From NCBI RefSeq assembly GCF_001447785.1, contig NW_015172027.1, forward strand, positions 339,843 through 403,842: a DNA stretch of 64,000 bases, in the 5' to 3' direction. The translations under genes and the position numbers were made by a program. This document shows, piece by piece, positions 21,288 through 48,680 of this stretch. The stretch comes from Gekko japonicus. Its lineage: Eukaryota. The notes under the pieces were generated by a model. That model was not told the DNA's origin. It did not search any database and worked only from the letters and a program-made list of their open reading frames with translations. The stretch's first letter is position 1. Each line of letters begins with the position of its first letter.

Positions 21288-24200
21288 ATGGAAAGAAGTA
21301 GAAAGACAAATATCATTTCAGTAAACGTTGAATAGTCCCCAGAAACGTAGATGAATTTACCCGCAAATTAGTAAACTCAAAGCAGGAGTTGTTTGTCTAC
21401 AAGAAACGCATATAAAAGAAAGTGATAACAAATACTTAGACTCAAAAAAAAAAGGAAAATTATTTTATTCAGCCGACCAAAAGAAAAAAGGAGTGGCAAT
21501 ATATGCTAAAGAAGATCTAAATCAGGAACTAGTATTCGCACAATTAGATGGAAGAGCCGTAGCAATTACGATAAATAGGAATAGTAAGAAACTAATAATA
21601 ATAAATATATACACACCAAATCAAAACCAGGAAAATTTTTTATAAATCACTAAAAGAAACAATAGCACTACAAAATTTCGACGAACTGTGTCTTGTTGGC
21701 GACTTTAATGCAGTGTTTGAGACAAAATTCGATAGAAAAAACTCTGGGAAGAATAAAAGATGGGGCAATGTTCTACCAAAACCCTTTTTGGAATTAGTGG
21801 ACGAACAAAATCTAGTAGATGTTTGGAGAGTAAGAAACTTGGAAAAAAAAGATTTTACTTTTTACTCAAACAGTCACATCAAATAGTCATAAATCATGGT
21901 CAAGAATTGATATGATATGGTCGTCAATATCATTAATTAACGAAGTTGAAGAAATAGACATTCTTCCACCGACCTTCGCCGACCACAATCCCATGTTAAT
22001 GTCTTTACGGGAAACCCCCCCAAAATTGAGATGGTATCTAAACAAAAACCTGATAAATAAAGAAAGCTTTGTGGAAAAAACTAAACAGGAAATAAATGAA
22101 TTTTTTGAAAATAACACTCGAGCAGAAACATCAAGTTTAGTAATTTGGGATACATTTAAGGCATACTTAAGAGGACTGTTTATAAATGAAGAAGCATGGA
22201 GGCAAAAACAAAGAAGGAAAGAATATAAAGATTTGATAATGCGAATAAAACAAAAAGAAGACAAATTGAAAAAGGGGAAAAACGAAGATCAATTTAAAGT
22301 CGAGCTCAAACTACTCCAACATCGATTAAATCTTATGCTAAGCAAGAACTAGCCAGAAAATTGGAATACACGAAACAGTATTTTTTTGAGAACGCGAATA
22401 AACCCACAAGATGGTTGACCTATAGGATAAAGAAAGAAAAGGCAAAAAAAATCATTAAGACGCTTAAAGATGAAAAACAACTAGAAAAGAATAATATTGT
22501 GGATTTGAAGGACATAGTTGAAAAATTTTATGGGAAACTATACCAACAAGAGTATATAAATCCCCAAAAAACAAAAGAATATTTACAAAGATGGAACACC
22601 AAGAAATTTGATGAAAAACAGAAAAAGATATTAAATATTCCAATATCAAGTGTAGAGATTTCAGAAGCAATTAGGAAACAAAAAAAGAACAAGACTCCCG
22701 GTCCAGATAATATCCCAACTGAAATATATCAGAAATTTGAAGAACAAATAGCTAAGCCTTTTCAAGAAGTACTATTGGAAATAGCGCAGGGAGGAAGAAT
22801 GCCACAGTCATGGGATGAAGCCCTGATTACTCTAATCCACAAAACAAACACTGATGCAAAAGACATAAAGAATTATAGGCCCATATCACTGCTTAATGTG
22901 GACTATAAAATCTACGCGTCTATAATAGCTGCAAGGTTAAAAAAGGTTCTAGCGGAAATAATACATGAAGATCAGACTGGGTTTCTGCTTAATAGACAAA
23001 TGAAAAGAAATTTAAGAACACTCATGAACGTATTGGAATTCTATGAACTACATCCAAGCGATCAGTTGGCGTTAATCTTCTTAGATGCTGAAAAGGCTTT
23101 TGATAGAGTATCTTGGGACTTTATGCTTCAGAAGCTAGCAAGCTGGGATTGTGGAGAAAGCTTCTACACAATGATAAGAGCGATATATTCAAAGCAAACT
23201 GCTAAAGTAATAATAAATGGAGATACGACAGAAAAGATCCAAATACAAAAAGGTACGAGACAAGGATGTCCACTGTCACCTTTACTATTTATCTTTATGT
23301 TGGAAACACTAACAGACCAAATAAGAAACAACGATAGAATAACAGGGCTCAAGATACAGAAAGAAACGTATAAGTTGCAGGCATTTGCAGATGATTTGGT
23401 TTTTGTGGTTGAAGACCCAGGTAAATCTATACCAGAATTAATGGAAGTAATTGAAAAATACGGAGAAGTGGCAGGATTAAAAATAAACTATAACAAGACA
23501 AATATCTTAACAAAAAACTGTACAATACAACAAACAGAACAGATAGAAAGGGTATCTCAAATGAAGATTGTTACTAAAGTTAAATACTTGGGAATAATAA
23601 TCCTGGGAATAATAATATCCAAAAGAAACAACACGCTAATCGAGGATACTACATTAAGTTATTAAAAGATATAACAAATGACTTAACAAAATGGGGAAAT
23701 CTTCAAATATCTTTCATGGGAAAAATATCTGTATTAAAAATGAACATCCTTCCGAGGTTCTTATTCCTAGCACAGAATATACCGGTCCTGAGAAACGCAA
23801 AAATCTTTAACGAACTTGATAAAATATGCAGAAAATTTGTATGGGCTAATAAAACCCCACGGATAAAATGGAAGATTCTGCAAGATCGAAAAGAAAAAGG
23901 GGGTGTGAACCTCCCAAATTGGAAGCTTTATTATTCTGCAGCCACAATGTCCTGGATAAAAGAATGGATTATTCTAGAAAACAAGAGACTATTAACGTTA
24001 GAAGGTTTCGACTTGGATATGGGATGGCATGCGTATATAGGCTATGATAAAGATAAAACACATAGCAAGTTTAATCGACATACTATTAGAGGGGCATTAA
24101 ATAAAATCTGGAAGGAGATAAAAGACAAACACTATCTCAAAACTCCTAGATGGCTCTCTCCTCTGGAAGCCTTCATTAAGCCATCTTTAATGAAAAATAC

Positions 24201-28102: not shown

Positions 28103-29900
28103 TCAACTCTGGATGTAGGTATTCTTTAGCATATATTACTACTACTCTTTTTTTCTTCTCATCTGATGCTGCAAAAGCTGTGCCCAGTTTTTATTCTATA
28201 ATATTTTATTTCATCTTTCCTAATGTGTGTCTCTTGAAGACATGTTATGTCTGCTTGTAGTTTGTGGATTTGGTGAAAAAAAATTCTTCTTTTTTGAGGG
28301 CTATTCAGTCAGTTCATGTTTATTGATAAAATTTGAAAAAAATTATTCTGGCCCATTTTTGTTTCTATAATCTCTGGCCTTGTATCTGGTTAGCATCTGG
28401 TAGGGTATATTTGATCTCTCCCCCCCCCCTTTTAAGATTTCTTTTCATCTTTTTCTTTTTCTTCTTCTTATCTCGATTTTTCTTCTTCTAAATCTGTTTC
28501 TTCTCCCTCCCTATCGTCTCCTTCTTCTTTCTGCCATCCCAGATCCTCCCCAAATTTTTCCAGAAAATTCCCAACTTTGAAAATAGAGTCAATTTTTTGT
28601 CTTCTCCCTCAAATCTCAAAAAGTATTCCTTCAGGTATTAACCACCAAAATTGGATGTTATTTGATCTTAGTAAGTCCGTTAGAATGTAATAATTTTGTC
28701 TCTTTACTCTTACCCTCCAAGGGATTTCTTTCAGTATTTTAATCTCTTCCTCTCAGATTGTAACTTTATTTTGGCTCGCCTGTTTCAAATTTTTTCTTTG
28801 ATTTCTTTTTTATAGAATTTTATATGGACTTCTCCTGGTATTTTATGTTTCTTCACATAGGCCGAGTTTCTTCTGAAAGTTGACTCAATTTCTGAGGCAA
28901 TTTCTTCCTTTGTCCCTATTTCAAGTTGAGAAGCAAAGCTCTGTGCTATTTCTTCTTTCAGATCTTTATCCACACTTTCTGGTATGTTCTGACATCTAAG
29001 TATAAGAGCTGCTTTGTCCATTTCCAGGGATATCAGAGATTCTTCTATCTTATCTCCCTTAATTTTTAATTCCTGAATTTCATAGTCTAATTCACGCACT
29101 TTTTTTGTTAACTCATTACTATTAGATATCGTTAACATTTCTTGTTTATTTTCTAGTATTTGTTTTTTAATTTCATCAGTTTCTGATTTAATTTGATTTG
29201 ACATTTCTTCCATCTTCACTCTTAGAGGTTCAATTTGTGTTGATAAATCCATCTTTTCTCTTATTGGATCAGTTTTTTCTTAATTGCTTGAGTTACACAC
29301 TCTTGGATCATTAGATTTAAATCTTTCATATTCATTTGTGGAAGAGACATTGTGCTTGTTTTGAGTTGGGTTAAATTACCTATTTGACTTGGTGATGTAA
29401 TGATTGTTTCCTAGATCCACTAGATCTTGAGGCCATTAATTACTAATTAGGAATTAATTGATAGTTATTCAATTTATTAGTATGTTTAATATGTCTTTGT
29501 ATAGTCCTGTATGTCTAGTGATTTTCTATTAATATTCTGTAACTTTCCTTATTCCTTAGGTGAGATACTAGCAGGCCTAGTGATAGGGCCGGTCCTGCTG
29601 ATGTTCTTTGGGGGGATTCCCTTATTATGTAGATTAAATTCAAAATCTTGTTTTTGTGTGTCCCTTCTCCCTAATTTGGGTTCAGGTCGTGACCTGTGGC
29701 TGGCCCTGTTTTAGTGCCTTAAGGATATCCAATGTAAACCTCAGCAGGCTGGTTAATATTGCTGTATCCACCACTTGCCCAAGTTAAAGGCTAGATGAGC
29801 AGGAGTCTACTAGAATTCAGGCATATTCCACTGTGTGTGTCTTGAGGAGAGGCCCCTGGTGTGATTAAATACAGAACCATCCAAACCATCCCTGAAAAAG
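28103..29900 (-). mobile_element. Decayed L1 5' part (UTR, broken ORF1, start of ORF2 endonuclease); 5' boundary uncertain
   Basis: ORF 28785-29252 (LEMDKAALILRCQNIPES) is homologous to the 18931 ORF1; CLQETH endonuclease motif near 28230. Confidence 0.8.
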
Positions 29901-30773
29901 AGACTTTGATATTTGAGTGCTTATGTGTTAGGCAATGAAACCGGTCCATGTATCGAGATCAGAGCTTCTGCATAGTTTGGCTACTCTGAATGCATTATTT
30001 TAAAACTTTAAAAAACACATAAGCTCTATAAAGGATGCCTGATGGAGAGCATGTTTATAGCCCTCCAAGAAGGAACAGGATGTGGAATGTCCTTTAAGAA
30101 AGTAAAAAGCAAAAGAGAAAACAATGGGGGAATTGTTCTGCTTGCAGGGTTGCCGGGTCTGGGTTGGAAGATACCTGGAGACTTTGGGGGTAGATCCAGG
30201 AGAGGGCGGGGTTTGGGGAGGGGAGGGGCCTCAGCATGGCACAAGGCCACAGAGTCCACCCGCCAAAGCAGCCATTTTCTCCAGGGGAGCTGATCTCTGT
30301 CAGCTGGAGATCAGTTGTAAATGCGGGAGATCTCCAGGCCCCACCTGGAGGCTGGCAAACCTTTCTGCTTGAGCCTCTGAAAACTTCTTTCAACCTGAAG
30401 CGGAAGTTCTAGGTCAGCATGGGCGGATTTCCTTATGCTTTATCCTTCCATTAATTTCTCACAGCATCCACAAATTGTAATTTATACAGAAATACCATAT
30501 TTTTTGCTCCATAAGACGCACTTTTCCCCATCCTCTACCCTCCCATTAATTTCTCACAGCATCCACAAATTGTAATATTATATAGAAATAAATAAAGGAA
30601 AGGACACCATGTAGACCAGGGTGCACATTTTATCTTTCATCTCCCACCTTATCAAGACATTAAGCCATGGCAAAATTGGATGAATACATGAGAAGATCAG
30701 CTCCAGCCTCCTAAATCACATGCCTGCTCAAAGAGTATGAAAGAAGCCCAGAACTTCAGTATCTTCTGCCATC

Positions 30774-30964
30774 TCAAACCCCTCTGGAAGGCCGGGTACA
30801 GTTAGCAGGAGGGAAAGGAGAAGGGTCTCGTCCATTGCATTTCTCAGTGTGGCAACAAGTGACAATCTGAATCTCATCGATCTTAGGAAACATGTAAAGT
30901 GTGTTACATTCATCGTCATTCCACTCACTGACACATCCATTAGTCACTTCAATAAGGTTTTTAC
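30774..30964 (-). CDS. Three-finger gene 1, terminal exon
   Basis: CCCCCTCACAG acceptor, phase 1; (G)KNLIEVTNGCVSEWNDDECNTLYMFPKIDEIQIVTCCHTEKCNGRDPSPFPPANCTRPSRGV* with the diagnostic CCxxxxCN. Confidence 0.9.
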
Positions 30965-32256
30965 CTGTGAGGGGGAAAAAGACAATATTGTGAGCCTGAC
31001 TATGGGTGGTAATAATGTCACAGAGCAGCTCAAAAGAATATGAGCCGGGGGCAAATATGAGGAACTACTGAGTAAATTGCACATCCTAATCATAGTTTTG
31101 ATTTACTTGAAGTACCAACTTTGGTGGCCTTTATTTCCCGGAAACTACCCAGCACTCGCATCCTAATTGTCTGTGGGAAATTCTGCATCTAGCATTCGCT
31201 TCACATTTTCTCAACTGGGAGGGAAAAGTGCAGCTCAACACCACATTCAAATACCTCAGGGCAATGCCACCATACTGACTGCAAAGCCACCCCTGAACGG
31301 CCCTAAAATGGCCATAAACCTATGCAGAAGGTACCATAAAATCCAACTATCAAAGAACTCAAAAGTGACATGGGGTGTGGAAACTTAAAACCCAATAATC
31401 AAAGGAAGTGAAAGCAGCATGCAATGCAGGGGGGAATTTCTGTTCCAATGTTGGTTTCGTAAAACAACGGAGGGAAAAGCCAATGCAGAATCAGCCTGTA
31501 TCTTCAGAGCACTTCCCCAAAGAGGGAGCTGCTGTACCATCATGCTAGATAGCCACACGGTGGCAGCACTGCAGGAAAATGTAAGGTTCTATTATACCCC
31601 ATGCCAGGGGTCATTTCATAGAAAAAGAGGTGCAGGAGCTCATTAGCATAACCTATTAGCATAACTTATTTGCATATGCCACACCCTCTGACATCACCGG
31701 AAGTGTGTCAGAAGGCAACACCCACCGCTCAGGCTCTACTGGACTGTTTTGGATGGCTAGCTATTGGAGGGGGAGAACATTCAGATCTGTCCTCGCAGAG
31801 GAGGGAAAGCTTGTACCTGGATAAAATTTGGTCTTAAAGGTGCCACTGGACTGTTTTGGACCGGGGGGCCAGGGGGAGCTCTGCAACTTACCTGGCTGCT
31901 TCTTGCTCTGACTGAGGGCTGCTGGGAGCAGGGGGTGTGGCTTGTTGCATGTGCCCGCCCCCTGGGCTCTTTACTGCCGGAGCTCTGCTCCTGTGCACTC
32001 CTGCAGGAAATGACCCCTGCCCCATGCAGTTCAGGCAGCTCAAGATGGGTCATGTGTCTTGTGAGTAAAGACTCTCCCCCCCCCCACCCCGCTGCCGCTA
32101 CTTTAGTTAGCCTGGATTTTTAGGATACCCTTACTGATTTGGTATTCTGATTTGCAGTGTTTTTTTGGTACCCAAATTTCTGCCATTTACAATGCTCATA
32201 GAGGATGGTGGTGGTGAGGGGAAGGTCTGAAATGCATTTCCTAAGCTGCTGACAAT

Positions 32257-32553
32257 GAAGAAGAAGAAGAAGAGGAAGAAGAGATTGGATTTATACCATG
32301 TCCTTCACTACCCAAAGGAGTCTCAGAGCGGCTTACAAACTCCTTTCCTTTCCCCTCCCCACAACAGACACTCTGTGAGGTAGGTGGGGCCGAGAGAACT
32401 CTGACAGAGACTGCTCTTTTTCAAGAACAGCTGTGCCAGAATTATGGCTTGCCCAAGGTCATCCAGTCAGGTGCAAGTGGAGGAGTGGGGAATCAAACCC
32501 GGTTCTCCCAGATTAGAGTCCGCGCATTTAACCACTACACCAAACTGGCTCTC
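32257..32553 (-). mobile_element. Full-length Squam3-like tRNA-derived SINE
   Basis: Box A TGGTGTAGTGG, box B GGTTTGATTCC, body CCTCACAGAGTGTCTGTTGTGGGG, (TTC)n tail. Confidence 0.85.
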
Positions 32554-34312
32554 TGGGCTGCCTGGTTTGGTCATTCCTTTTGTTTTAAAGTGTAAATCAG
32601 TGATACTTAGTATCTTGGGTGCCATCTGTGGCTCTTCTGAGTGTCATTCCCAATGTGGCATTTGCCCCTTGTTCTGGGAGAATGAACAATGCTATTTCCT
32701 GGTTAGACTTGTGGTTAGTGTAGGCTAGGCCCAGAGACCTGAATATGTTATTGTTAAAGATCAATGGTTCATAGGCCTCCATGATCAGAAACCAATGTGT
32801 TTCAAAACGGACACGATTTTTTTTCCTTTGCAAGAGAACTAGCAATCTCAAAGGAATGCACCAACAGGTAACACTGAGAAATGAATAGGTTGTGTGAAAG
32901 TTCTTTCTGTCTGCTAAAATGTTGCAAATGAAGTCTGAAGCAGCGTTTATCACAGGAGAAAAATGGCTCCTGTTTTGAACTGTTTGAAAGCAAAACCATC
33001 TCGGTATTGCAAAGGGATTTAAAATGCTATAGTTTTAAACTCCGTATTTTATAAACATTCATAATGTAAGTGAACTTAATCTTAACATGAGGGTAACCTG
33101 AATTGTTTATAACCAATGTGTTTAATAAGGCAACCTATAATCAAAATGCTTGAAAGCCATGATTAATATCCTATCCTATATATAGAACTGCCCTACATAT
33201 TGGCACTTCCCAGCTCTCCCATTGGCTGTGCTGTGCACTCCATCAGCCATTGGACAATCAACCGCCTCTCAAGAGTACTCATGTGCAGGTGCTGGATCCA
33301 CTTCTCTCCCCCGCCCACTGCCAGCCTCAACACTCTTCCCTGACAGAATAAACTGCCAAAACGGCTGTCTCTCCTGACAAAGATGCTTCTCCTGCTTGTC
33401 TCCTGTGGGATTAACTTTTCCCTCAGTGGCTGTTGCTAGGCAACCAAGCTTGGTTCTGTCAGTAAAAAGGCAAAGGCAGGAGGCCCTTTGTGGGGAACTC
33501 ATTGGGGTAGGTCCTGACTAGGGTTGCCAGCTCCAGGTTGGGAAATTCCTGGAGATTTTGCGGTGGAGTCTATGGAAGCCAGAGTTTGGGGAGGGAGGAG
33601 TCCTTAGCTGAATAGAATGTCATAGATTCCATCCTGCAAAGCAGTTATTTTCTCCCAGGGAACTGTTGCTGCCAATCTCCAGGTGAGGGCTAGAGATCAC
33701 TCAGAATTAAAATTGTTCTCTAGTTGAGAGAGATCAGTTCCCTTGGAGAAAATGTCTGCTTTGCAGGGTAGATTCTGTGTCATACCCTGCTGAGGTTGCT
33801 TCCCACCTTCTTGGGTCCACACTACGGAGAAAGACTGTACTTTTCCTAGGCAGAGGCTGCAGGTGGAGGGGGGAGACGGAAAGCTAAAGTCAGAGGGGCA
33901 GATAATGGTACGTTGTTGGTTGGCTGGGAAGGCGATAGGGTTGCCAACTCCAGGTTGGGAAATTCATGGAGATTTGAGGGGTGGGGCCTGGAGAGGGTAG
34001 GGTTTGAGGAGGGGTGGGACCTCAGACAGGTACAATGCCATAGACTCCACCCTCCAAACCAGCCATTTCCTCCTGGGAATTCCAAAGGGTGGCGGGAGCT
34101 TGGGGAGGCAAACAAATAATGGTCCTTTTAAAAGAAGCCTCATGCTTCTACAAACTTTGAAATTAAGCCATGCAGCCCTAGAAAGGGGGGGGCTATGAAA
34201 TAATTGGCTTATGTGCAGAGTCAGGCATCTTTGAGAACTCCAGAAGGGCACCAGATAGGGTCAACCAGTGTTTCAACTGAAACTTCTACGCTGTAAATAA
34301 TTCTTGATAAGA

Positions 34313-34440
34313 CACCTGCATTCAGCAAGAAATGCAAAAGCCCTTTCTTGTCTAAGATGATGAGAAGCAAGAGAAATGTTGCAACGTGGGTCTCCGTAAG
34401 AAGTCTTTGAGTGCCAATGTAACATTCTAAAGCCTCAAAA
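34313..34440 (-). pseudogene. Possible relic LU exon in intron 2 of gene 1
   Basis: FEALECY, then after a frameshift ..HSKTSYGDPRCNIS; preceded by a pyrimidine tract lacking the expected AG; ends CAG|GT. Confidence 0.3.
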
Positions 34441-35655
34441 TATGGCAGATGGGAGGGGGGACAGTGCAAAGAAGAATGGCTTTTCATAAAACCTTATGCA
34501 GACTTTGAAATTAAGCCTTTAATAAATCATGCAAGCCTCTATATGTTCTAAAATGTCTCTAAATGCCCCAATATGTTGAAACTGATTAGAGTAAGCATAT
34601 CAATTAATTGCATTTAGTTTGATTTGGGAAAAGCTCATAACTAAAGCAATAGATGCCAGCAGAGAAAGCCTGCTGCATTCCTATGGGAGGGGCAAATGGC
34701 AAACGCTATAGCCTACATGAGAACTAATGTTGCTTCTGAATTACACAACACGTATCCCTTGTGTTAGACTCTCTAATGAGAAGGCCTTTGTTTTGTAAAA
34801 GTAATTTCTTTGTCCTAAGGTATAGATGGCTGGCACATTCTAGGGGGGGGGATCTTCAAAGAGTATATGTCTCAAGACTCTCTGTTTGTGTAGCACTCAT
34901 AGCAATGCTTTGTTCACTGAATGATATCTAAATGACTGGGAACAAAACTGAAAAGTACTGAGTTAGGACACGTGGCACAGTAATCAGCTCATAGTTTATT
35001 ATACTCCCAAACCTAAAGGCAATCTGGCCGGTCCTCGACCGGCTTATATCTGTGCACACACACACACACTAACACCCCCCCACTCCAGTAATAGGTTCTA
35101 TTTACACTACTCAGTCCCCATAGGTCCATCCTAGAATCCACACAAGTCCATTGGTCTGTGTTCGGATTCTACCTGTCTATTGTTTCAGACCTGAAGGTCT
35201 GCTTGACCGCATGGCCTCACTAGCACTGGTGTGGCCATCTTAATATATAACAAAACCTTTGAAACATTGGTTTGAAACACTTTATCGCTGGCAAGTGGAA
35301 AACAACATTGTTTAAAAGTGCTGATGGGTATGGTCATTGTCTGTATGTGTAAGGAAAACGAAGAGATTGTAAATAGGCATGCTCCAGATTTCAGACAAAG
35401 GAAACTGAACTGAGCATGCCTGGTTGATGTCATAAGGGGAGGTCTTGACATGTCATGATGGAAGGATTACCAGAAGGTATAAAAGATGTAACCCAATTTT
35501 ACTAAGTTGAACTCTTTGACTTGACACTGAGCTGAATGGGTTCCCTTTATTAATAAAGCTTTCTTTCTTCTTGCTACTCTGCCTCCTCCCTGTTGGTGTG
35601 ACTAACTGGCTTAGGCCACACCAGTCAAAGGACCCCAAAGCTTGGGGCGTGGACT

Positions 35656-35837
35656 CAGGGCTCTTTTTGTAGCAGGAACTCCTTTGCATATTAGGTGACA
35701 CACCCCTAATGTAGCCAATCCTCCAAGAGCTTACAATAGCCCCTGTAAGAAGAGCTCTGCAAGCTCTTGGAGGATTGACTACATTAGGGGTGTGTCACCT
35801 AATATGCAAAGGAGTTCCTGCTACAAAAAGAGCCCAG
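35656..35837. mobile_element. Palindromic MITE (hAT-like CAGGGCT ends); partial copy at ~37775-37870
   Basis: ~75-bp arms GGGCTCTTTTTGTAGCAGGAACTCCTTTGCATATTAGG... are near-perfect reverse complements. Confidence 0.8.
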
Positions 35838-36924
35838 GGTGTGGTTTACATTAGCAGGTGGTTTGGTTCTTGAATAAGCGACTGCTGGAGGATAGGGAGG
35901 ATGGATAAGCAGTGATGTTCCCAGAGCTGATAAAGAGACCAACAGCCGATAACCATCTCACTCCCCACAGCCTTTAAATCAGGGCTGCTTACTACACAAC
36001 TCCCAAAGAGCCTCACTGGCAGTCGTTATCAACTGGAAGAGCCACATAACTCCCACATGCCCTGCTCACCACACTGTCAAACACACACATACAATACAAG
36101 AGAACAATTAATATTAATTTTACACAACAATTAAGATGAAATATATACATTTAGATATATAAAATAAATTTAGGGAGATTGATTGCTGTCACTCCTGGCA
36201 TTTTGGAAATGTTTGGGGGGACTCTGGACAGACTCAAGCCACCACAAGCAAGCTTTTTCTGTTATATGTTAGACTTGGGGAAACCCCAACTTGTATTTAT
36301 TTGTTTAATTTAGACCCCCCCTCCCCTCCCCCAAAGCAGGCTCAGGGCGGTTTTGTCTCCCACATTCACTCTCATGTCCAATATCCTAGTTTCTGGCCCA
36401 ATCACTGGCCAGTTCACTTATCTTCCAAGATAATTCCCCCCCCCTTTATTTGACCTCCTTTTAACTGCCAGCCCAGATATTGCGGGAACTGATGGAACTT
36501 AGCCCAGGGAGGATCTGGGTCTCATGGTATGAGGAGGTTAGTGCCATGAGGAAATGTGTCCAGAAATCAGTATGTATCTGTTCAAACTTCTCCTTAGCTG
36601 GACTCAAGCTCAGGAAGAGATTCTTCTAAGGATGAAACCATAATGAGCTATCAGGGTGGGGCGAGTTTATAGTACTCAGGATTTGCCCAGCATCACAAAA
36701 TTTTCCCTGAGCTCCTGTACTCTGAGTCATCCAGAGCCTGTTCCTGAAGTCTCAGCTCAAAAAGAGGTTGTGAACTCACCAGACGCAGTCAGCTGCCCCT
36801 CTCTATTGTAAGGCCAGATCCCAGACCACCAGCCCCATGTCGCCTCCCAGTACCTGGAAGGAGTGGGGAAAGAAAAGGATCTAGTCCACTTGCAGCTCCA
36901 AGATTTTGTGTTCATTGAGCATAC

Positions 36925-37044
36925 CTGTAGGAGCTTCGTAAATCGTTTTTGTGTAACATCTCCCCATCTTGGATGTGCATGAGTTCTTGGTACGACAGTT
37001 CTCAATAGATGCAGATAGGCATTCATTACAGAGGAGTTCTTGGG
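36925..37044 (-). CDS. Three-finger gene 1, first LU-domain exon
   Basis: CCTCCCAG acceptor; 120 nt, phase 1-1; (A)QELLCNECLSASIENCRTKNSCTSKMGRCYTKTIYEAPT(G) with 5 Cys; donor GTATGC. Confidence 0.9.
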
Positions 37045-38807
37045 CTGGGAGGGGGGAAAGGTATCTTTGAAAATAATATTTCCAGATATTTCAAATTTAT
37101 TGAATACCTCCATTGTTTCCCAACACAACAATACAAGTTAACATTCTATTTTCCCACCTAGTATTTCCTTCGTCAAAAATTAAGATAAGAATAATTTAGG
37201 TATGTTGAGTCTTTGCCAAATGTTTCTAGCGTAGTTTGCATCAAATAAGAAATCTGTTGAGTCAGCAGCTCTTACGTGTTGTTAGAATTTCACTGCTCTT
37301 CCTTGTCAACAATCAAGTATCCAATTTCACATCAAGCTGACCTTTCCATTTTATAAAATAGGAAATAGTGGGTTGGACCCTACCCCTCTCCTACCACTCA
37401 ACTAAGGAAAGTTTATTGATATCCATAAGATGATTGTTAAAATATTTACATCCCAGTGTTCCTCTTGGGATAAGTTTGAAGCCTTCCTCCAGTCTAAGAA
37501 GCCTCCTCCAATGTAAGTGGCTCTTCCTTAACAGAAGGTTCCTGAGGCTGAGAGACAGCTACTTGGGAAATGGTTGGATCTCCTCTGGTATTGCATGCTA
37601 GGTAAAGCTTAATGTAAAACAACCTTGAAATCAAACACTCTGTGATGTCAAAGGCAAATGCATATACACAGGAAAAAACAAGCTGTATGCTGATGCTGTA
37701 CAAAATCAATACTCTAAATATATAGAAAAAGCTTTAAAGTGCTGGTATCAAACCACATGTAAATGAATCGCATGGCTCTCTTTGTAGCAGGACCTCCTTT
37801 GCATATTAGGCGACACACCCCTAATGTAGCCAATCCTCCAAGAGCTTACAGAGCTCTTCTTACAGGGGCTACTGTGAACCCCAGAAAAAAGATGGGGGCT
37901 AAGTGGAAGTGTGCAGCAGGAGGAGGGAAATAGGCAATAATCTCCCACCCTTCTTCCACAAATAGAAATGGAATTCCATCAGAGGAACTGCTGCTACATT
38001 GAAGGAATGGCACCTCAGGATCCAAGCTAAGCAATACAAAAGAAGGGGTAAAAATCCAATACTAAAATGGAGCTAGATACCTTAAAGGTTGAGGTTACAA
38101 GCATAAATAAAAAAGATTAGACAAAATATATACTTCATATTACAGCGCACTTCAGTCTATATATCTAATAGCCACTCTGTGTTTTCTGTGTGGATACTTA
38201 TTTCCACCAACAGAGGGCTCACTCTTCCCCAACAGCTTTTCCTACATACTCAGGAGTCTTCCTGGGGCACAGAAAAATCCAAGGGGGAAAAAAAACCTTC
38301 AGAGATGGTTGAATTCCCCCCAATACCTTTTGAAATGGCCTCCAAAGGGGTCTACTTCAGACATCAACGGTAAGAGATTAGAATACTCGAGGTGGGGAGG
38401 CTTCCAACTGACTGTCATTAAAAGGGAAGGGAAAGGGCCCTTTCCAGGCCTATTTTGGCCTTTGAGGGAGGGAGCCTTTGGCCAGGCCTGACAAGGGTGG
38501 CCAGTGCCAGGTTGGGGAATTCCTAGATTTTTTGTTGTGGACTCTAAGGAGGGTTGTGTTTGGGGAAGGGAGAGGCCTCAGCTGGGTATAATGCCACAGA
38601 GTCCCCCCTCCAAAGCAGCCATTTTCTCCAGGGAGACAGACCTCTGCTGTCTAGAGTCCAGTTGTAATTTTGGGGGGGTCTCCAGGTCCCACTTGGAGGT
38701 TAGCAACCCTAGGTCTGGCAGCAGTCTAGAATTGCCAGGTCCCCCCTGATTTGCATGAATCAACTAGGCCTGACTGCTTGCTACTGTTCATCAGGAGCCA
38801 CCCTATG

Positions 38808-39000
38808 AAAGCTAGCCAGTGAGGTGCAGCAGTTAGTGCTTCAAAGTAGGGTCAGCAAGATCCAGGTTCAGATCCCCATCTTGCGGTGGAAGCTGATTGG
38901 GTGATTTTGGACCAGTCACATACTTTCAGCCTAACCAACCTCACAGGGTTGTTGTGCAGATAAAAAGGAGGAGAGAATAATGTAAGCTGCTTTGGTCCCC
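38808..39000 (+). mobile_element. Older tRNA/CORE-type SINE
   Basis: Box B-like GGTTCAGATCC; CORE-like CAGCCTAACCAACCTCACAGGGTTGTTGTG. Confidence 0.6.
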
Positions 39001-40789
39001 ACTGTGGAGAAAGACTGTAATTTTCCTAGGTAGAGGCTGTGGGAGAGGGGGGTGGAGAGGGAAAGCAGATCAAGGTAGGTTGGCTATTGAATGGGAAGGA
39101 AATAGGTTTGCCAACTCCAGGTCGGGGAATTCATGGGCATTTGAGGGGTGGAGCCTGGAGAGGGTGGGATTTGAGGAGGAGAGGAACTTCAGACTTGTGT
39201 GATGCCATAGACTCCACCCTTCAAACCAGCCATTTCCTCCACGAGAACTGCCATTGCCAGCCTCCAGGTGAGGGCTGGAGGTCACCCAGAATTACAACTG
39301 CTGTCCAGGTGACAGAGACCAGTTCTCCTGGATAAAATGGCTGCTTTGGAGGGTTGAGTATATGACATTATACCCTGCTGAGGCTGCTTGCCTCCCCAAG
39401 TTTCACTGTCCCAAAGCTCCACCCCCAAATCTCCAGGAATTTCCCAACCTGGAGCTGGCAGCCATAAGGTGAATTGATCTCTGTAGCTGGGAGATCCACT
39501 GTGATTCCCAGAGTGCTGCCACTGCTGCTGTGAGGGGAGAGGAAGCAGGTGGGTAGCTGGGAGTACCGCCACCACTGCTGCTGTTGCTGCTATGCAGGGT
39601 GGGGGAGGAATCAGGCAGGAGGCTGGAAGAGTGATGGGGGCAGAAAGAGAGAGTGATGGGGTGAGGAGGCAGAAAAACAAGGAGAATGGTGACAGGTTAG
39701 AAAGAGAGAGGAAGTCACATGCATGGAGGAGAAATAGAAAGTAAGAAAAGGGGGGCAGAGGGGAGAAATAGTGTGAGAGAGGTAGGGGGAGAGGGGAGGA
39801 AGCAAAGGTGTGAGGAATGGGATAACCATCCAGCAAGTTTCTTGCAGGTCTCCACTTGTAGTTCATTAAATACAAAATAACCCTTTGGGTCATACAAGTC
39901 ACACACTGTGCAGTACACATTACCTACAATGCAATAAACTCTTAGTGGCACTGGTTGGAACCAATAAAACTGGATGAGAGATGTTTCTGCCACAAAGGCC
40001 TTCTTCAGTGGTCCCAATTTAATACCACATACACACTATATGAAGGAATCTGTATCGTATTTAGCCATGTAAGGTATTATGGGGGCATTTCAAAATATAT
40101 ACTCTGCCACAGAAATACTCAGTGGGGGTATTACATCTAGCTCCTGATTGTTATAGCCACACCAATGGGAATGAGAGAAGGTATAATCATACTGAAGACA
40201 GCAGTTCCTCCACCCACAGTGTCTGTATATGTGCTGCAGCTGTAAATAAAACCCAATTAAAATTAGTTTCAAAATATACAACAACCTTTAATCTTTTAAA
40301 TATGCATTTTGTCAAAATAATAAGTAGTTTTGAAGGGGTTCTATCACCTTTAAATTGTTGTTTCTATTTTGCAATGGTGCACTTTTCCTGAATCTTACAC
40401 TACAGTGGTATAAATCTATTGGACTTTGAAAGCCCCTCTCATCTTCCAATATTTGCCAGCTTCACAAAAACCAAGGGGGGAAAGACCCCCAAACTACAAA
40501 GCCACCCATTTGATCCCAAAAGAACAGTCAGATGGGGAAGGAACAATGTACCATCAAATAGTGAGTTCATGTCGGTTACACCCACCCTGCAAAGCATGCC
40601 AATATATTAATCCCCTATGGAAAATTGACCATGTGTCTCCGGAACCTGAAGCACATTTCAAAGGTCATTTAATATAATGTCAAAAACATCATATACTGAG
40701 TTGTATTCAGTGCTTGGAAAACAACAAGCTTCTGGAAAGCATTTTCAAATGATGGTATCACTTTACTATGCTCTGATTAGATAGACGTC

Positions 40790-41165
40790 ACCTAGAATAT
40801 TGTGTTCTGTTTGGGGCACCACAATTTAAGAAGGATATAGACAAGCTGGAACATATCCAGAGGAGGGCAATGAATATGGTGAGGGGTCTGGAGACCAAGT
40901 CCTATGAGGAAAGTTTGAAGGAACTGGGTATGCTTAGCCTGGAGAGGAGACCACTGAGAGGTGATATGATAACCATCTTCAAGTACTTGAAGGGCTGTCA
41001 TATAGAGGATGGTGCGAGTTGTTTTCTGTTGCCTCAGAAGGTCGGACCAGAACTAACAGGTTGAAATTAAATTAAAATACTTCCTCGGGAGGTGGTGGGC
41101 TCTCCTTCTTTGGAGGTTTTTAAACAGAGGCTAGATGGCCATCTGATAGTCATGCTGATTCTGCA
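40790..41165 (+). mobile_element. CR1 LINE 3' fragment
   Basis: [31 protein letters not shown] is the typical CR1 ORF2 C-terminus. Confidence 0.85.
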
Positions 41166-41273
41166 AACTTATTTGATGGGCTGTTCATGCTTCTTTAGCA
41201 TGAAGAGGGGATTTCTTTCTGCCTCCCAGCCCTGCAGGGAGTCAGCAAGAACAGAAGCCGATTTTCAACTCAC

Positions 41274-41325
41274 CAACGGTGAAGAGGAACAGACTGGAGA
41301 ATCCAAGGAGTAGAATCGTCTTCAT
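41274..41325 (-). CDS. Three-finger (Ly6/uPAR) gene 1, signal-peptide exon
   Basis: Acceptor TTTTTCTCTTCAG (exon starts 41347); ATG at 41325; MKTILLLGFSSLFLFTV+G; donor GTGAGT at 41273; phase 1. Confidence 0.88.
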
Positions 41326-41572
41326 TCTGTTTCAATTTTTGATGTTGCTGAAGAGAAAAAGACTGAAAGAGGCTGCCGGAATCCACACCACTCTGAAAGT
41401 CTTCAGGTACATCTAAGCAGGTGTACACTTGTTATTTATTCTCTCTGGGATCCGAGGAGTAGCCAATGGGGAGAAGGATGAAGTTGTGTTAATCCCATTT
41501 TGTGGTGCAATATACCCAGTTGCACAAATGCTTTTTTAATTGTTATGTTTTTAGGTTTTGTCATAAACTTAC

Positions 41573-41650
41573 AGGAATCAGAGGACAGTAGTGACAATGA
41601 TATATATACAAAATAGAAAAAAATGTGCAAATTTCTGCAGACAGGTTTTA
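41573..41650 (-). other. Putative non-coding first exon of three-finger gene 1
   Basis: Consensus GTAAGT donor at 41572-41567, about 225 nt upstream of the signal-exon acceptor; start position unknown. Confidence 0.45.
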
Positions 41651-41856
41651 TCAGAGTGTGTTGGCTTCTGAGAAGTGCTTTGTTAGCCAGTTGGACTGCT
41701 ACCTTGTTCTAGGAAAGTACCAGAAATGGTACTTCATGTTTTTTTTAAAATTACCACATTGACTTCATTTCTACATTTCCGTTACCAGAATATATTGGTA
41801 TTTGCTTCAACAGGAATGGTCATTAAAGTCCTTCTGGGAACAAGGTGTACATAAGA

Positions 41857-44357
41857 TATTGTGTAGTGGGTTGCCGCATGGAAGGACGACAGACGACGAC
41901 GTAGTGCATAGCACGCTTTATTAGGTACACAACAAGACAGGGGACAAACGGCCGGCAGGCCAACTATATACACAGCCAGGGGCACACCCCTGGGCCCTAT
42001 TGGCGGGTTTGAATCTCCCGCCACGGTCCCATTGGTTCCCCCAGTGGAGGGACTAGGATCCTAGTCCCCATTGTTGTCCAGGACTGAAGCTCAGGCGTGT
42101 GCGCTGACCTCCGGTGGCGGTCAGTGGACACAACATCCCTCCCCCATAGTCCGGAACCTCCCCTATGTAACATAGTCTTTAAGGTACGATGGTGTCCGTC
42201 GTACCCTCGCGGATCGTCTAGGGCCCTGTTCTGGGGCCCCCTGGGTTCCAACCTCTGGGGCGGAAGCCTGAGGTTGTTGAAACAGTCCGGGCGCCACGCT
42301 TACTCCGAAGCTTAGTCGCTTCACACGGAATGCCCCCCGGTGCGTTACTATGGTTTGCGCCTCCGCCGTTGCCTCACCCACTGGCAACTGCTGGTAAGCT
42401 TGGGCGAGATCCAGTTTGCCAAAGATCTTAGCCCCGCCCAAGGTGGCAAGAACGTGGCTAACTACAGGGACCGGGTAAGCATGGTCCTGCAGCGCCTTGT
42501 TCAGAGTACATTTATAGTCAGCAGAGATGCGGACTGCCCCATTGGGTTTATTAACCACGACTATGAGAGTCTCCCACGCCGCGTGGGAGACTGGCTCCAG
42601 GATGCCTTGCGCTACAAGGTGGTCCAGTTCCACGTCGATTTTTGGCTTTACCGACAACGGAACTGTCCTGGCTCGCATCCTTATGGGGGCCACCGAGGGG
42701 TCTAAGCGCAAGGTCACCGGGGGGCCCGTATACCGGCCCAGAGAATCGTCAAAAACGGCGGGAAACTCGTGGCAGATCCCCTTGAAGTCTTGGGTCGTGC
42801 AGGCCTGTACTCCCTCTACCGTGATGCCCAGGGGTTCAAACCAGGCCCGCCCCAGTAAACTGACTAGGTCGCCTTCGACCACGATCAAGTCCAAGTTCCT
42901 TTTAAAATTCTTGAACTGCACCCGGAAAGTTCCGACTCCCTTGATTGGCACCGGGTTACGCTGGAAGTCCATGAGCGTAACCTGGGCTGGGCACAAGCGG
43001 GGTCCCCCCTTGGGACATAGGTGTCTCAGGGTCGCGGCCGAGATTATTGAGGCCGCGGACCCCGAATCCACCTCCATCTTACAAGGGGACCCTGCTATTG
43101 TCACGGTGGCCATGAACTTAGGGGAGGGCGACTTCCCAGGGAGTTGCAGTACCTGCTGACTCTGGTGGGTGAGGTGGTAGAGGTCCTCGGCGCCGGCGTC
43201 TTTCCCGAAGTAGGTCTCCGCTTTCGGCCGCGTTGCCTTGGAGCGGCAGACCTTCGCGAGGTGCCCGGTGCGGCCGCAGTTGTGGCAGACAGAATTGCGG
43301 AACCTGCAGATCTTGCGGTCATGCGGGTCCCTGCAGCTGGCACACGGGGATGCGTTGGGATGCTGGCGACCGGCGCTCGGGTGCGGCGCTTGAGTGCGGN
43401 NNNNNNNNNNNNNNNNNNNNNNNNNNNNNNNNNNNNNNNNNNNNNNNNNNNNNNNNNNNNNNNNNNNNNNNNNNNNNNNNNNNNNNNNNNNNNNNNNNNN
43501 NNNNNNNNNNNNNNNNNNNNNNNNNNNNNNNNNNNNNNNNNNNNNNNNNNNNNNNNNNNNNNNNNNNNNNNNNNNNNNNNNNNNNNNNNNNNNNNNNNNN
43601 NNNNNNNNNNNNNNNNNNNNNNNNNNNNNNNNNNNNNNNNNNNNNNNNNNNNNNNNNNNNNNNNNNNNNNNNNNNNNNNNNNNNNNNNNNNNNNNNNNNN
43701 NNNNNNNNNNNNNNNNNNNNNNNNNNNNNNNNNNNNNNNNNNNNNNNNNNNNNNNNNNNNNNNNNNNNNNNNNNNNNNNNNNNNNNNNNNNNNNNNNNNN
43801 NNNNNNNNNNNNNNNNNNNNNNNNNNNNNNNNNNNNNNNNNNNNNNNNNNNNNNNNNNNNNNNNNNNNNNNNNNNNNNNNNNNNNNNNNNNNNNNNNNNN
43901 NNNNNNNNNNNNNNNNNNNNNNNNNNNNNNNNNNNNNNNNNNNNNNNNNNNNNNNNNNNNNNNNNNNNNNNNNNNNNNNNNNNNNNNNNNNNNNNNNNNN
44001 NNNNNNNNNNNNNNNNNNNNNNNNNNNNNNNNNNNNNNNNNNNNNNNNNNNNNNNNNNNNNNNNNNNNNNNNNNNNNNNNNNNNNNNNNNNNNNNNNNNN
44101 NNNNNNNNNNNNNNNNNNNNNNNNNNNNNNNNNNNNNNNNNNNNNNNNNNNNNNNNNNNNNNNNNNNNNNNNNNNNNNNNNNNNNNNNNNNNNNNNNNNA
44201 GGGGCACACCCCTGGGTCCTATTGGCAGGTTTGAATCTCCCGCCACGGTCCCATTGGTTCCCCCAGTGGAGGGACTAGGATCCTAGTCCCCATTGTTGTC
44301 CAGGACTGAAGCTCAGGCGTGTGCGCTGACCTCCGGTGGCGGTCAGTGGACACAACA
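41857..44357 (-). mobile_element. Internally deleted Gypsy LTR retrotransposon with 5-bp TSD
   Basis: LTR 41857-42135 is nearly identical to the partial LTR ending at 44357; TSD TAAGA (41852-41856, 44358-44362); polypurine tract at 42136-42146; CCHC knuckle, protease VDSG, RT truncated before YxDD and fused to the integrase tail RRSARVRRTPSYLKDY. Confidence 0.92.
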
Positions 44358-46179
44358 TAAGAACACCTTTGGGCTGGCCAGGGCCCCCCTCAGAATTGTA
44401 TCCCCCCTTGAAAGTTTCCTTCAAAACAACCCTGATCAGTGAGGCCTGCAGGGCATCTTTTTATTTCACAAGGGAAAATGGTCAAGCCATAGCACAGCAT
44501 CATCAGGCAGCAATTTGACAGCAAACAGAAGTACCTTCTTAACTAGCCAGTCCTCCCAGGACCCATCATGGGCCTTTCAGGTGAAGTGAGTGTCCCCCCT
44601 TAGTGCCCCTGTTTCTCTCTTAGACCCAACCCAGACAACATATGACACTTGACTTGCCCTGGTCAGTCAGCCCCCAGTTAGGTGAAGGCAGTTGGTTCTT
44701 ATTTCCCTCAGTCCCACTCCCCTTCAACAGCCCCGGATTGAGCAGATGCTTTGTGGAAACAGGATACTGAGTGAGGCACTGCATAGGACTTGGGACAGGC
44801 AGGCCCATCTAATTTCAGAGACAGTAAGCTGTACTTTTGCAGGGTCCACCACATTCTCTAGATAGATTCTGGGCACTGGAAGTTTATCTTGTTACAAAAG
44901 CTGGTCTCTTGGCCTTACTAGATAACTCCACACCCTTCAAGTTGCACAGCTGAACACAGGGACAAACCTGTTCACAAATGGGTGGAGATATGGGATATGA
45001 GCAGGAGGGCCAACTTAATCCAGGCTTAACAACAGAGGTGTGAAATTCCTGAGCTGGACCATACCACTACCCCTTTTGAGGTTGTTCTATGTATTTACAA
45101 AATGAAGAATGTGAGCCTGAATCAGACCTGTAGCCACATGGATGCATTTGATGGCAACATCCCCTTTCAAATGTGCCATACTCCCTCCCTCCGGGTCCCC
45201 CTTCTCCCCATCCCTCCTGAGCCCACATGAGCTGCTGTGTCTCTTTTTCCCAGCCCGGCTCTCCTAAGTGGCATCTGGCTCTCATAAGTGTGCAGGGAGG
45301 GGGCGGGAGGCTGGATGCTGCTGTGACCACTTTGCCTCAGCTTCTTTTCCCCTGATCAGCTGAGCTCAGCCGCTGCTGCCCTTGATGCCTGCTCTGAGCA
45401 TCGACAGCACCTCCCATTTCCTCCTCCCTTGCACCTTCCAGGAAGCCCCTTTCCAGCCCACCATCTGCTGGGACGTGGAGAAGCAGGGAAGGCAGGGCAA
45501 GGTGGCACCTCGGTGTGGAGCTCTTCCTCATCTTTCCCCCCAGCCGATGGGAAGTGACACAGTCTGCCTGGCCCACACAAAGGAGACTACAGGTTTATTT
45601 ATTTTTATTCAATTATTTCTGTGACATTGTAAGTGACATCATGCCCCCCCCACCTACCCACCCAGTGCCCACAACCAAACATTTTCTGGCTACAGGCCTC
45701 TGAATGTTTTGGGAATCAAGAGAAATTCAACCGGGGAAAAAAAACTTTTAAGGGGAATTTGGGTAGGGGGGTTGTTGTTTGTGGACCTCCTTTGGTGTCT
45801 TATCTCCCCCCCGCTCAATTTTCTGGGCAATGGGATGGAGGGGGTAAAAGCAGACAGTGCTGTCTTCTAATGGCACCTATGGGAGGCATCAGATCAAATG
45901 CTCTTTGTTGTGGATGCCAGACCTCCCCCTCAATGGGGGCAGCTGGCTGGTGGGGGAATTACCCCCTCCAAAAAAAAAACAAGGAAGAAAACCAGAAATT
46001 AATGCAATGTGCCTATGTGACCCAGAAGTGACGTAGGCTTGGGCAGGGATGTCAGGGGGTGACACTCTTGTTTTGAGGCAAATCTCTATAGTAGAAGCTA
46101 ATTCTAGGGCTAGCTTGCCTACCTGATCACTACATCCCCTGACAAAAATAATTCAGATGAAACCCATGGAACTAATGCT

Positions 46180-48680
46180 ATGGTTCTATATTTGGAAGCT
46201 TTTCCCATTAATATGATGATCACAAATGCTGATTTTCCTCTCAGTTTAACTTCCGGTGATTCGGATGAAATATGGTTCAATTTTGATATATATCAGTAAG
46301 AATGGGAGGAACAGTTGTCGTGCAACCCCTGTATAATTGGCTGGGGGTTTTAATGCTCGATCAAGAGCTAGTGATAAGCAATTGTTTAAAATGAATAGTA
46401 CTTTTAGATCGTTAAATCAAGGTCAGTGGTTTTCTGGTATATGCATCTCAGAAGATGATACAGTTGCAGGCATTGCACTCAGAAAATATTCAGATACTCA
46501 TGGGCTGTTTTTAGTCAATGGTAATAATACAGTGGATGGGCCTGCAGATTTTACATTTGTTTCTAAAAATGGTTCTGGTGTGATAGATTTAGTGTTGGCT
46601 TCCTTGGATTTATTTGTTAAGATAACTCATTTTAAAGTATATGAACCTATTGTTAGTGACCATTTTCCTGTTCTTTGGCAGCTAGATATTAAAGTAAATC
46701 AGGTCCCTAGGGAGTTAAACCCTGATCCCGAGTTGCTCTTTTCCCTGATCTCAGGGCAATGGGATGATAAGGTCACAGAGAAAGTGGCTCAATTACTTTA
46801 TTCTGAAGAAATGCTCATAAATAAGAACAAAGTGATGGATTCTACCTCTCTCTAAGGGATTTTAAGGGAATTCCAGGAGATGCAAGACCAAATGAAACAC
46901 TTATTGGTCAGGAGGGGTGGTGGTAATAAACTCAAAAGGAAAAACAAAAAGATTTGGTTTCACGTGGAGTGCAAAAGTAGCAGGAGGCAAGTCAGGAAGG
47001 ACTACTATAAATGTAAGAAATCTAATAATGTTGCTACATGAACAATATACCTTAATTCAAAGCATAGAAATAGGATCCTTTTTAGGCACAAGAAGTATCA
47101 TGGTACCTGACAATCTTGGGCTGATCAGATTGAGGCATCCACCAGTAAGGACTCAAGATGCTTTTGGAGGCTCGTTAACAGGTCATTAGTTCAAAGAAAA
47201 CAAAATACAGATAGTTGTATCTACTGTAACAAGTAGGTCGAACACTTTACATCTTTATACATAGCTGATGCTTCTTTCCTACCATCGACTATTGCGGCTA
47301 TGTTGGATTGTAAAGACAGAGATATTACTTTGTTCCCAGCTACAGAAGCTCACATCTTGAACCTTACTGCTGGTTTAAAGGCAGGCAAGGTGGCAGGGTC
47401 CAAATGGATACCACCTAATTTAATCAAGGATTTTGCCACTTGGTGGTCCCCAATTTTGACATACTTGTTTCAGACCATTGATTACTCTGGACAATTTCCT
47501 GTGACCTGGAAAGAGGCTATAGTAGTTCCTATTTACAAAAAGGGGGATAAACTTGACCTGAAGAATTGCAGACCTATAAGCCTGCTGTTATCTTTTGACA
47601 AACTTTATGCAAGCCATTTGCTCATTAAGTTGATAACTTGGATAGACTCAGAACATCTGTTGGGAAGAGAACAAGCTGGATTTTGAAGGGGGATGTCAAC
47701 AACTGATCTTTGTGTGGCCCTTTCGCATATGGCTGAGAAATATACTAGAACCAAACAGGGGAGGCTATATGTTGCTTTCTTTGACTTAAAATCTGCATGT
47801 GATATAGTCTTTCAGGATAGACTCTGGGAGAAGCTATGCAGGACAAATATACCAGTTCGGTTACTCTTTTTGATTAGTTGTCTTTAATGTTCAGATTAGA
47901 ATCTGTTATGGTGTAAATGGCTGTTTATCTGCTCCCATAGAGGTCAGGAGGGGTGAAATACAAGGTTGTGTCCTTGCTCCTACCGTGTTTAATCTTTGCA
48001 TTTAAGATTTAGCCCCTAGACTGAATATGCTGTCTTTGCAACCACCCCCACCACCCCACAGCTAGGAACTCATCTGATTTAGGTTATGCTGTATGCAGAC
48101 GACATAGCTCTGGTATCAGCAACCAGGGTGGGACCGTGTCAATCACTTGAGATCTTCATCCAGTATTGTGCTGATGAACACCTGGTAATTAATTTTTAAA
48201 AATCCAAGGTTTTAGTTTTTGCTAGATCTTGTAGGCTGAAATTATTATGTTGGAATATCTCAGGTCACATTATGGAAGAAGTCCAATCTTACAAATATCT
48301 GGGAATTACATTACAATATTCACTCTCTTGGGCTTTGCATGCTAAAGAGATATCTATGGAAGCCAAGAGTACAGATGCAATTTTGAGGATTTTTTTACCA
48401 TAGGTGCTCAGTTTGTCCCTGCAGCTTTGGATGCATTTGGGACAAAAATAACCTCACTGTTTTTGTACGCTATTCCGGTGTGGATTGGTTTCCTGGGTAC
48501 AAGCCCAGATACAATCCAGACAAATATATTTTGGTCGATCTTAGCATGTCCTTGATGAATCACCTCATCCTCCTTGTTAAGAGGGCAGAAGAGAATTTCT
48601 CTTATAGCCTGGCTAATCATTATTAAATATTGGTTTGCAATTAATATAGAGAGTAAGGAATCACTAGTTTTACTGTCAGC
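46180..48680 (+). mobile_element. Decayed non-LTR retrotransposon ORF2 (RTE-X-like, clade tentative)
   Basis: Endonuclease GGFNAR, GVIDL, SDHFP; RT WKEAIVVPIYKKG..NCRPISLL, AFFDLKSA, YADD; many stops. Confidence 0.75.

Follow-up and report, generated by a model that had tools for sequence, protein, structure and literature searches.

A secreted-type three-finger protein gene with a cysteine-bearing proline tail, predicted in the class III region of the Gekko japonicus MHC

We analysed a 64,000-nucleotide stretch of the Gekko japonicus genome (the window; positions 339,843 to 403,842 of contig NW_015172027.1) and found on its minus strand, between window positions 41325 and 30774, what by its exon structure is a real and intact three-exon gene for a protein with a single LU (Ly6/uPAR, or three-finger) domain. 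Behind this domain the predicted protein carries a short proline-rich tail with an eleventh cysteine. Judged by its locus, the gene is a member of the LU superfamily from the LY6G cluster of major histocompatibility complex (MHC) class III, not from the cluster of three-finger toxins (3FTx) and SLURP proteins. On the same comparisons, the gene belongs to a birth-and-death cluster of at least five open-frame copies, and the tail-bearing subfamily is squamate-wide (gecko, skink and snake), with only its expansion being local.

The features of the gene, in window coordinates, are as follows.
41325-41274 (52 nt), minus strand: exon 1, coding part; signal peptide, 17 codons plus 1 nt
37045-41273 (4,229 nt), minus strand: intron 1, GT-AG, phase 1
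37044-36925 (120 nt), minus strand: exon 2, holding LU cysteines 1-5
30965-36924 (5,960 nt), minus strand: intron 2, GT-AG, phase 1
30964-30774 (191 nt including TGA), minus strand: exon 3, coding part; LU cysteines 6-10, tail and stop
30857-30834, minus strand: CCxxxxCN motif in exon 3
30777-30833, minus strand: tail of 19 aa, proline-rich and hydrophilic, with a PFPP motif
30800-30798, minus strand: codon of the eleventh cysteine, in the tail and inside an NCT sequon

The original prediction had read from these coordinates three exons with GT-AG, phase-1 introns, a 120-aa product with ten LU cysteines and an eleventh, and a complete secreted-type gene with no glycosylphosphatidylinositol (GPI) signal and no assignable named orthologue. 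Each of these points was borne out, down to the open frame, the signal peptide and the hydrophilic tail. The predicted product has a hydrophobic N-terminus, 11 cysteines at spacings of 2, 7, 5, 6, 20, 8, 16, 0, 4 and 12, and the NCT sequon at residue 112. Its ten-cysteine LU frame has an N-terminal CxxC and a C-terminal CCxxxxCN, a motif that occurs only twice in all six frames of the window, one occurrence being this exon 3. A signal exon followed by two LU exons with phase-1 introns is the layout of the LU superfamily, and both acceptors are preceded by a polypyrimidine tract. Scanned alone against PF00021, exon 2 gave 20.9 bits (E 5e-4), below the cut-off of 24.8, and exon 3 gave no match. 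Because the splice positions, phases and cysteine frame are repeated in four further three-exon copies on the contig, we reasoned that the gene model is not a product of chance. The annotated leopard gecko protein XP_054834644.1 also joins its exon-2 and exon-3 parts (identities 21/38 and 28/57) at the same point as the model.

Word-based protein searches (one of which returned the query only and another 2 of 153 candidates) and profile searches found no record of the gene's own protein. No RNA record was listed for exon 3 with the 3' UTR. Of 17 listed runs, four were aligned over 29000-42000 and, like the one raw RNA run, which was covered to about 12%, were uninformative on expression: in all four, depth was 0 in the exon 1 and exon 2 bins, and the predicted junctions were not among the 15 joints listed of 51. 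Two contigs over exon 3 carry bases like those of a neighbouring copy, and one of them extends into the intron.

Two further features concern the ends of the gene.
41434-41467, minus strand: probable core promoter, with an inverted CCAAT (41467-41463) and a TATA-like AATAAAT (41440-41434)
30629-30634, minus strand: GATAAA, a variant polyadenylation signal 139 nt downstream of the stop

The inverted CCAAT and the AATAAAT lie 115-140 nt before the ATG and are invariant in five of five aligned copies, so the 5' end of the gene probably lies near 41410 and not at 41650, where it had been placed earlier. A TATATA near 41608 is common to two of the five copies. An untranslated upstream exon was considered since all five share a CAG located 22 nt ahead of the ATG; the alignment of far-upstream blocks gave no informative signal for such an exon, which the conserved promoter motifs make unnecessary. 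At the 3' end, three distal copies have AATAAA 148-159 nt after the stop, the nearest copy has the same GATAAA as the gene, and the nearest canonical AATAAA for the gene is at 29478. An insertion of about 2.5 kb (window ~41850-44360), about 0.5 kb upstream of the ATG, is absent from the nearest copy. This insertion is CpG-rich, partly N, and has direct repeats of at least 159 nt (98.7% identical) near its ends. The 3' region of the gene also holds a tandem duplication with a 96-nt period (window 30428-30590), likewise absent from the nearest copy.

Searching the genome with exon 3 gave 11 matches among 23 candidates (E<=1), eight of them on the window's contig, and 8 of 10 returned loci end in PFPPxNCT. 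The five open-frame three-exon genes on the 834-kb contig have their exons 2 at 297, 377 (the gene described here), 682, 736 and 783 kb; their exons were paired by order and strand, an assumption that matters chiefly for a copy with a 22-kb first intron. Four of the five encode 11 mature cysteines. Further copies are broken (258-260, 329, 406 and 610 kb) or short-tailed (one, at 455-462 kb). The copy nearest to the gene duplicates it as a whole, mostly at 89-95% identity, and is 79 kb away.

The same contig holds a second anchorless LU subfamily, represented by six last exons (328, 405, 627, 699, 760 and 798 kb) of the GCTTA..RHLCN-like type with tails of 7-16 residues that lack cysteine. Several of these adjoin PFPP-type last exons on the opposite strand. 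Two copies at 693 and 744 kb have identical exons 3 within a 1.4-kb block at 97.5% identity, which reflects either gene conversion or an assembly effect, and exons 2 that differ at 17 nonsynonymous and 0 synonymous positions.

We found that the tail extends beyond this genome. A profile of six exon-3 copies, searched against 1.84 billion representatives (E<=0.001), gave four matches. Three are single-LU proteins, each the sole member of its own cluster: XP_054834644.1 from the leopard gecko (Eublepharis macularius), which is the nearest database relative, XP_034277431.1 from the corn snake (Pantherophis guttatus) and KAJ6651615.1 from the skink Lerista edwardsae. The fourth, a protein of 1,021 aa in which LU repeats are numerous, was not carried into later comparisons. 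Like the gecko gene, all three relatives, which are known here from protein records and not from genomic position, have 11 mature cysteines, the last of them 11 residues after the final LU cysteine in the motif PFPPPxC, and neither a hydrophobic tail nor a GPI signal. The stop follows the LU domain after 19 residues in the gene and after 15-19 in the relatives. Two of the three, the gecko one included, pass the PF00021 cut-off. A tree built from the LU portion of exon 3, excluding the tail, had 18 rows (the broken copies and an identical one were not included) and groups the relatives with the gecko copies at 87/90 support. The original prediction had called the protein lineage-specific, which does not hold for the subfamily, as proteins of the leopard gecko, the corn snake and a skink have the PFPP..C tail as well. 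Its description of a tail with an eleventh cysteine inside NCT stands for the cysteine and for PFPP, both conserved; the NCT sequon is confined to the gecko proteins and absent from the snake and skink ones. A literature search that covered few subscription journals found no paper describing a tail-bearing squamate subfamily, which appears to be undescribed in the literature and databases covered.

We also asked where in the genome the gene lies. The contig carries the following markers, in contig coordinates.
98 kb, minus strand: G6B-like V-set immunoglobulin (Ig) exon (PF15096, 24.0 bits, cut-off 24.3)
109-129 kb, minus strand: ABHD16A exons (PF22990 above cut-off, matching nowhere else in the genome, and four more exons located via motifs that we take to be those of ABHD16A)
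161 kb, plus strand: V-set Ig exon in LY6G6F-like position
185, 234 and 476 kb, minus strand: GPI-type LU last exons
476-490 kb, minus strand: GPI-type LU gene, LY6G6C-like
560 kb: RING exon

In Supplementary Table 9 of PMC9679377, the order in the anole Anolis sagrei is MPIG6B (minus), ABHD16A (minus), LY6G6F (plus) and, about 280 kb on, LY6G6C (minus). Four contig markers match this class III order and its strands, with the anole gene names assigned by position and domain, not by sequence. Human class III, as listed in PMC6957513, has the same genes together. These markers put the gene between the LY6G6F-like and the LY6G6C-like position, in what is the LY6G6 region of MHC class III. Pfam scans of long frames (150 of 414) and candidate exons (68 of 96) yielded the few markers named here. 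A search for DDAH had no match anywhere in the genome and is uninformative. CSNK2B was not found on the contig; elsewhere, a full-length intronless match to CK2-beta (contig C1225, 107126-107677, plus strand) is probably a retrocopy of the spliced gene on contig C5607. Left of the G6B-like exon, at about 61 kb on the minus strand, a frame matches the TRAF BIRC3-binding domain (E 4e-5, below cut-off), and inside the LU cluster a 363-aa open frame (434.6-435.7 kb, minus strand) has a Ras-family domain (PF00071, E 3e-29) and is either a single-exon gene or a retrocopy.

The gecko gene occupies the same genomic interval as the class III LY6G6 genes (LY6G6C/D/E/F), with the marker order of Anolis sagrei (PMC9679377, Supplementary Table 9), and has in common with them the three-exon LU layout and a related signal-peptide exon. 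Unlike LY6G6C, D and E, which PMC4839075 lists as GPI-anchored, it is secreted-type, multi-copy and cysteine-tailed.

This position bears on whether the gene could be a three-finger toxin, or the lizard orthologue of one, expressed in oral glands. Snake 3FTx and the reptilian LY6 groups 1-7 are like the gecko gene in exon layout, in the ten-cysteine plesiotypic frame and in anchor loss, gene expansion and fast loops. Furthermore, the gecko product begins with MKT, two of the three squamate relatives bear neurotoxin-like names (the records being automatically named or hypothetical), and the corn snake one, labelled 'neurotoxin 3FTx-LT-like' by its source, passes PF00087. Against this, an MKT start is treated as possibly convergent in PMC10421932, where 3FTx and their ancestors are placed at TOP1MT and the 3FTx/LY6 set is defined by that gene, in a survey of 15 genomes that included no gecko. 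In our genome, topoisomerase I (PF02919) matches only on contigs C13566 and C504, away from the contig with the gene and its class III markers. Moreover, PFPP has 0 occurrences in the 1,427 LY6/3FTx sequences of Koludarov 2023 (a control, MKTLL, occurs in 606 places), and six supplementary files of that study contain neither the gecko and snake accessions nor the skink genus. We regard a toxin or toxin orthologue as very improbable. The earlier comparison with SLURP and 3FTx therefore stands as to exon structure and does not extend to the locus, which is the class III LY6G6 region and not TOP1MT.

A related possibility is a SLURP-like regulator or defence protein of skin or mucosa (a nicotinic modulator, or a pathogen- or complement-binding protein) shaped by host-pathogen conflict. 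Secreted single-LU SLURP-1 acts in the epidermis (PMC6600238), the mammalian LY6G6 neighbours are at the cell surface, with Ly6g6e listed as an alpha4beta2 potentiator (PMC4839075), and positive selection would fit immune genes. The SLURP genes, however, are placed in the 8q24/TOP1MT cluster and not at the class III locus, and SLURP-type secreted domains are described as ending at the last disulfide (PMC6600238), whereas the gecko gene continues for 19 aa beyond it, with a conserved cysteine. A SLURP-like role is rather unlikely.

We next compared rates of change, using simple pairwise counts. Against the nearest copy, the LU part differs at 23 of 199 nonsynonymous sites and at 2 of 47 synonymous ones, the tail at 0 of 57 and the introns at 342 of 6,259. 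The LU nonsynonymous rate is about twice the intron rate (p 6e-4), and 21 of 82 LU residues differ with no cysteine lost. Two other pairs of copies gave nonsynonymous against synonymous differences of 17/203 versus 0/52 and 59/202 versus 8/53, and the three pairs pooled, with one copy used twice, gave p 0.002. As far as pairwise counts can suggest it, this is what one would expect of binding loops that vary while the tail stays fixed.

These counts also bear on whether this one copy might be a young duplicate, silent or decaying, within a family that is otherwise functional. Broken copies are present on the contig, and the gene has the variant polyadenylation signal and, upstream of its promoter, the insertion that its nearest copy lacks. 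Set against these are the open frame, the 11 cysteines, the splice sites and the promoter motifs, all kept; the GATAAA, which the nearest copy has too; and the 21 changed LU residues, which came with no lost cysteine and 2 synonymous changes. We therefore hold a silent duplicate to be quite improbable.

Because a signal peptide is present and a GPI signal is absent, the protein is very probably secreted; it would fold, again very probably, into a three-finger domain held by the usual five disulfides. On the Kyte-Doolittle scale, the tail stays at or below -0.3 in every 9-residue window; among the 16 LU last exons of the contig, 3 encode hydrophobic tails, with maxima of 1.96-2.42, and that of the gene is not one of these. 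Six short hydrophobic frames stand behind AG sites within 8 kb downstream of the gene. Before the exon 3 stop there is no consensus donor, only two weak GT sites. Fold models of the leopard gecko relative were of low confidence (pLDDT 51 and 55). The best structural match reached via the relative's model was the LU domain of LYPD6B (Z 4.4, rmsd 3.7, 76 aligned), Foldseek returned nothing at E<=0.001, and an Atlas model matched LU clusters at TM 0.55-0.66. Searching the Protein Data Bank (PDB) with exon 2 returned RNF4 RING fingers, which were taken as a cysteine-pattern artefact.

The only four PDB sequence matches of the exon-3 profile were ActRIIA and BMPR2 ectodomains, which raises the idea of a soluble BMP/activin decoy that mimics the ectodomain of a type II TGF-beta receptor. 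BMPR2 also has FPPP after CN, and the skink relative passes PF01064 (23.2 versus 20.9). The PDB E-values are not significant (0.44-1.7), though, and TGF-beta receptor ectodomains are LU domains in any case (PMC6600238). In addition, the N-terminal CxxC and PF00021 fit the Ly6 type better in two of the three relatives, the stop 19 residues past the LU domain leaves no transmembrane or kinase part, and fast loop change is unexpected with a conserved ligand. A decoy is accordingly a most doubtful candidate, with hardly any likelihood.

What, then, of the spare cysteine? Free cysteines rarely survive in secreted proteins. Since the eleventh cysteine is kept in gecko, skink and snake and would need a partner, we favour, with some reserve, an intermolecular disulfide. 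There is a precedent in irditoxin, in which an eleventh cysteine makes a covalent dimer, although that cysteine was introduced in the LU domain and the gecko one is in the tail (PMC6600238). A two-copy model of the leopard gecko relative (score 0.02, mark 0.32) gave no evidence either way on a dimer. The rigid proline tail would hold the spare cysteine away from the LU core, where it would link a homodimer, link a heterodimer among paralogues, or tether another secreted protein. The linked protein would act as a two-headed ligand.

As to ancestry, exon 1 of the gene is identical to those of the other four copies at 42-47 of 52 nt, to that of the LY6G6C-like neighbour at 36 of 52, and to that of another GPI-type LU gene at 22 of 52; for the exons 1 of the copies, the two latter values are 34-38 and 22-27 of 52. 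Because exon 1 is closer to the LY6G6C-like gene than to the other GPI-type neighbour, these identities suggest descent from the former. The family probably arose from this GPI-anchored neighbour, its anchor signal being replaced by the tail in an event that would be independent of anchor loss in 3FTx. A further, recent anchor loss is suggested at 516.9-543.3 kb (plus strand), where an anchorless sister of the GPI-type LY6G6C-like gene ends one residue past CN (support 96/97).

For the role of the protein, we tentatively propose a secretion of the male reproductive tract that would bind sperm-surface or female-tract proteins through its variable loops. It would be, perhaps, a squamate counterpart in role, ancestry aside, of mouse Ly6g5b/c and PATE. 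Ly6g5b and Ly6g5c are secreted, epididymis-enriched LU genes of MHC class III whose double knockout lowers male fertility and zona binding, as happens with the PATE cluster (PMC10506895). Like the gecko gene, LY6G5B and LY6G5C are secreted single-LU genes of class III adjoining ABHD16A. In the available text of the anole supplement (PMC9679377), LY6G5 occurs only in the human query list, in two places. PATE is likewise a tandem cluster of secreted ten-cysteine LU proteins (Atlas likeness 0.87, TM 0.63). STT3, which we take to be a neighbour of the PATE cluster, is not on the gene's contig and has matches on other contigs. The human PATE locus is 11q24.2 (PMC4839075), while the gecko gene is flanked by class III markers.

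A different use of the same properties would be a chemosignal from skin, precloacal or cloacal glands, linked to the MHC, with variable loops that vomeronasal or other receptors would read. The secreted, multi-copy nature of the family, its fast LU change with a fixed tail and its class III position would all suit such a signal. Three-finger pheromones are reportedly found in salamanders. The sequence itself gives no pointer to a gland, though, and the literature covered by our search reports no such protein from a lizard gland; we consider a chemosignal unlikely, though not negligible.

Several points weigh against the reading preferred here, a class III secretion of the male tract derived from a LY6G6C-like gene. 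With respect to the locus, the contig yielded neither DDAH2 nor CLIC1 (the CLIC matches are elsewhere, on different contigs), the G6B-like match falls just under its cut-off, and the name LY6G6C-like comes from position and a GPI tail, the Atlas having given no name. With respect to descent, the branch at 87/90 is below the tool's bar for strong support and has long branches; in the exon-3 tree, which includes no mammalian sequences and fixes no root, the family and the LY6G6C-like gene are not joined. The excess of nonsynonymous over synonymous change for the gene's own pair falls short of significance (Fisher p 0.11 one-sided, 0.18 two-sided), one copy enters the pooled test twice, and gene conversion could explain the identical tails, as in the 1.4-kb block at 97.5%. 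The cysteines are not kept everywhere: the 736-kb copy lost LU Cys4, and the 462-kb copy and the second secreted subfamily lack the tail cysteine. The variant polyadenylation signal and the upstream insertion could lower the expression of this copy. Finally, the tissue is argued solely by mammalian analogy. In human, ABHD16A stands between LY6G5B and LY6G5C on one side and the LY6G6 genes on the other (PMC6957513), so orthology is not implied, and the Atlas likeness to PATE4-like and LY6G5C clusters (0.86-0.87), a lead only, is tied with that to CD59.

As known from sequence, this is an unusual gene family and not a new mechanism. It would be a separate anchor loss and large expansion in squamate MHC class III, beyond the TOP1MT cluster that PMC10421932 surveyed, with five open-frame tail-bearing genes, the six last exons of the second subfamily and two more anchorless copies on one contig. 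Because only three database proteins represent the tail-bearing family and two of them are named for neurotoxins, sparse annotation can mislead toxin-gene arguments in lizards. At its furthest, and as a speculation that we think improbable, squamates would have in class III an overlooked family of three-finger proteins that are secreted and dimerise covalently. The history of 3FTx, with its anchor loss, expansion and positive selection, would have been repeated there at another locus, and the proteins would serve, linked to the MHC, as a signal for recognition in scent or between sperm and female. If true, it would give a direct molecular handle on how lizards advertise MHC genotype in mate choice, and some 'neurotoxin-like' annotations in non-venomous squamates would not be relatives of 3FTx by locus.

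The rest of the window contains mobile elements. Overlapping long frames at 4324-8205 (minus strand) with reverse transcriptase (PF00078) and tyrosine recombinase (PF00589) domains mark a DIRS-like retrotransposon, and frames for LINE-type reverse transcriptase/endonuclease lie at 13987-14928 (minus), 22298-23662 (plus), 46337-46852 (plus) and 60871-62436 (minus).

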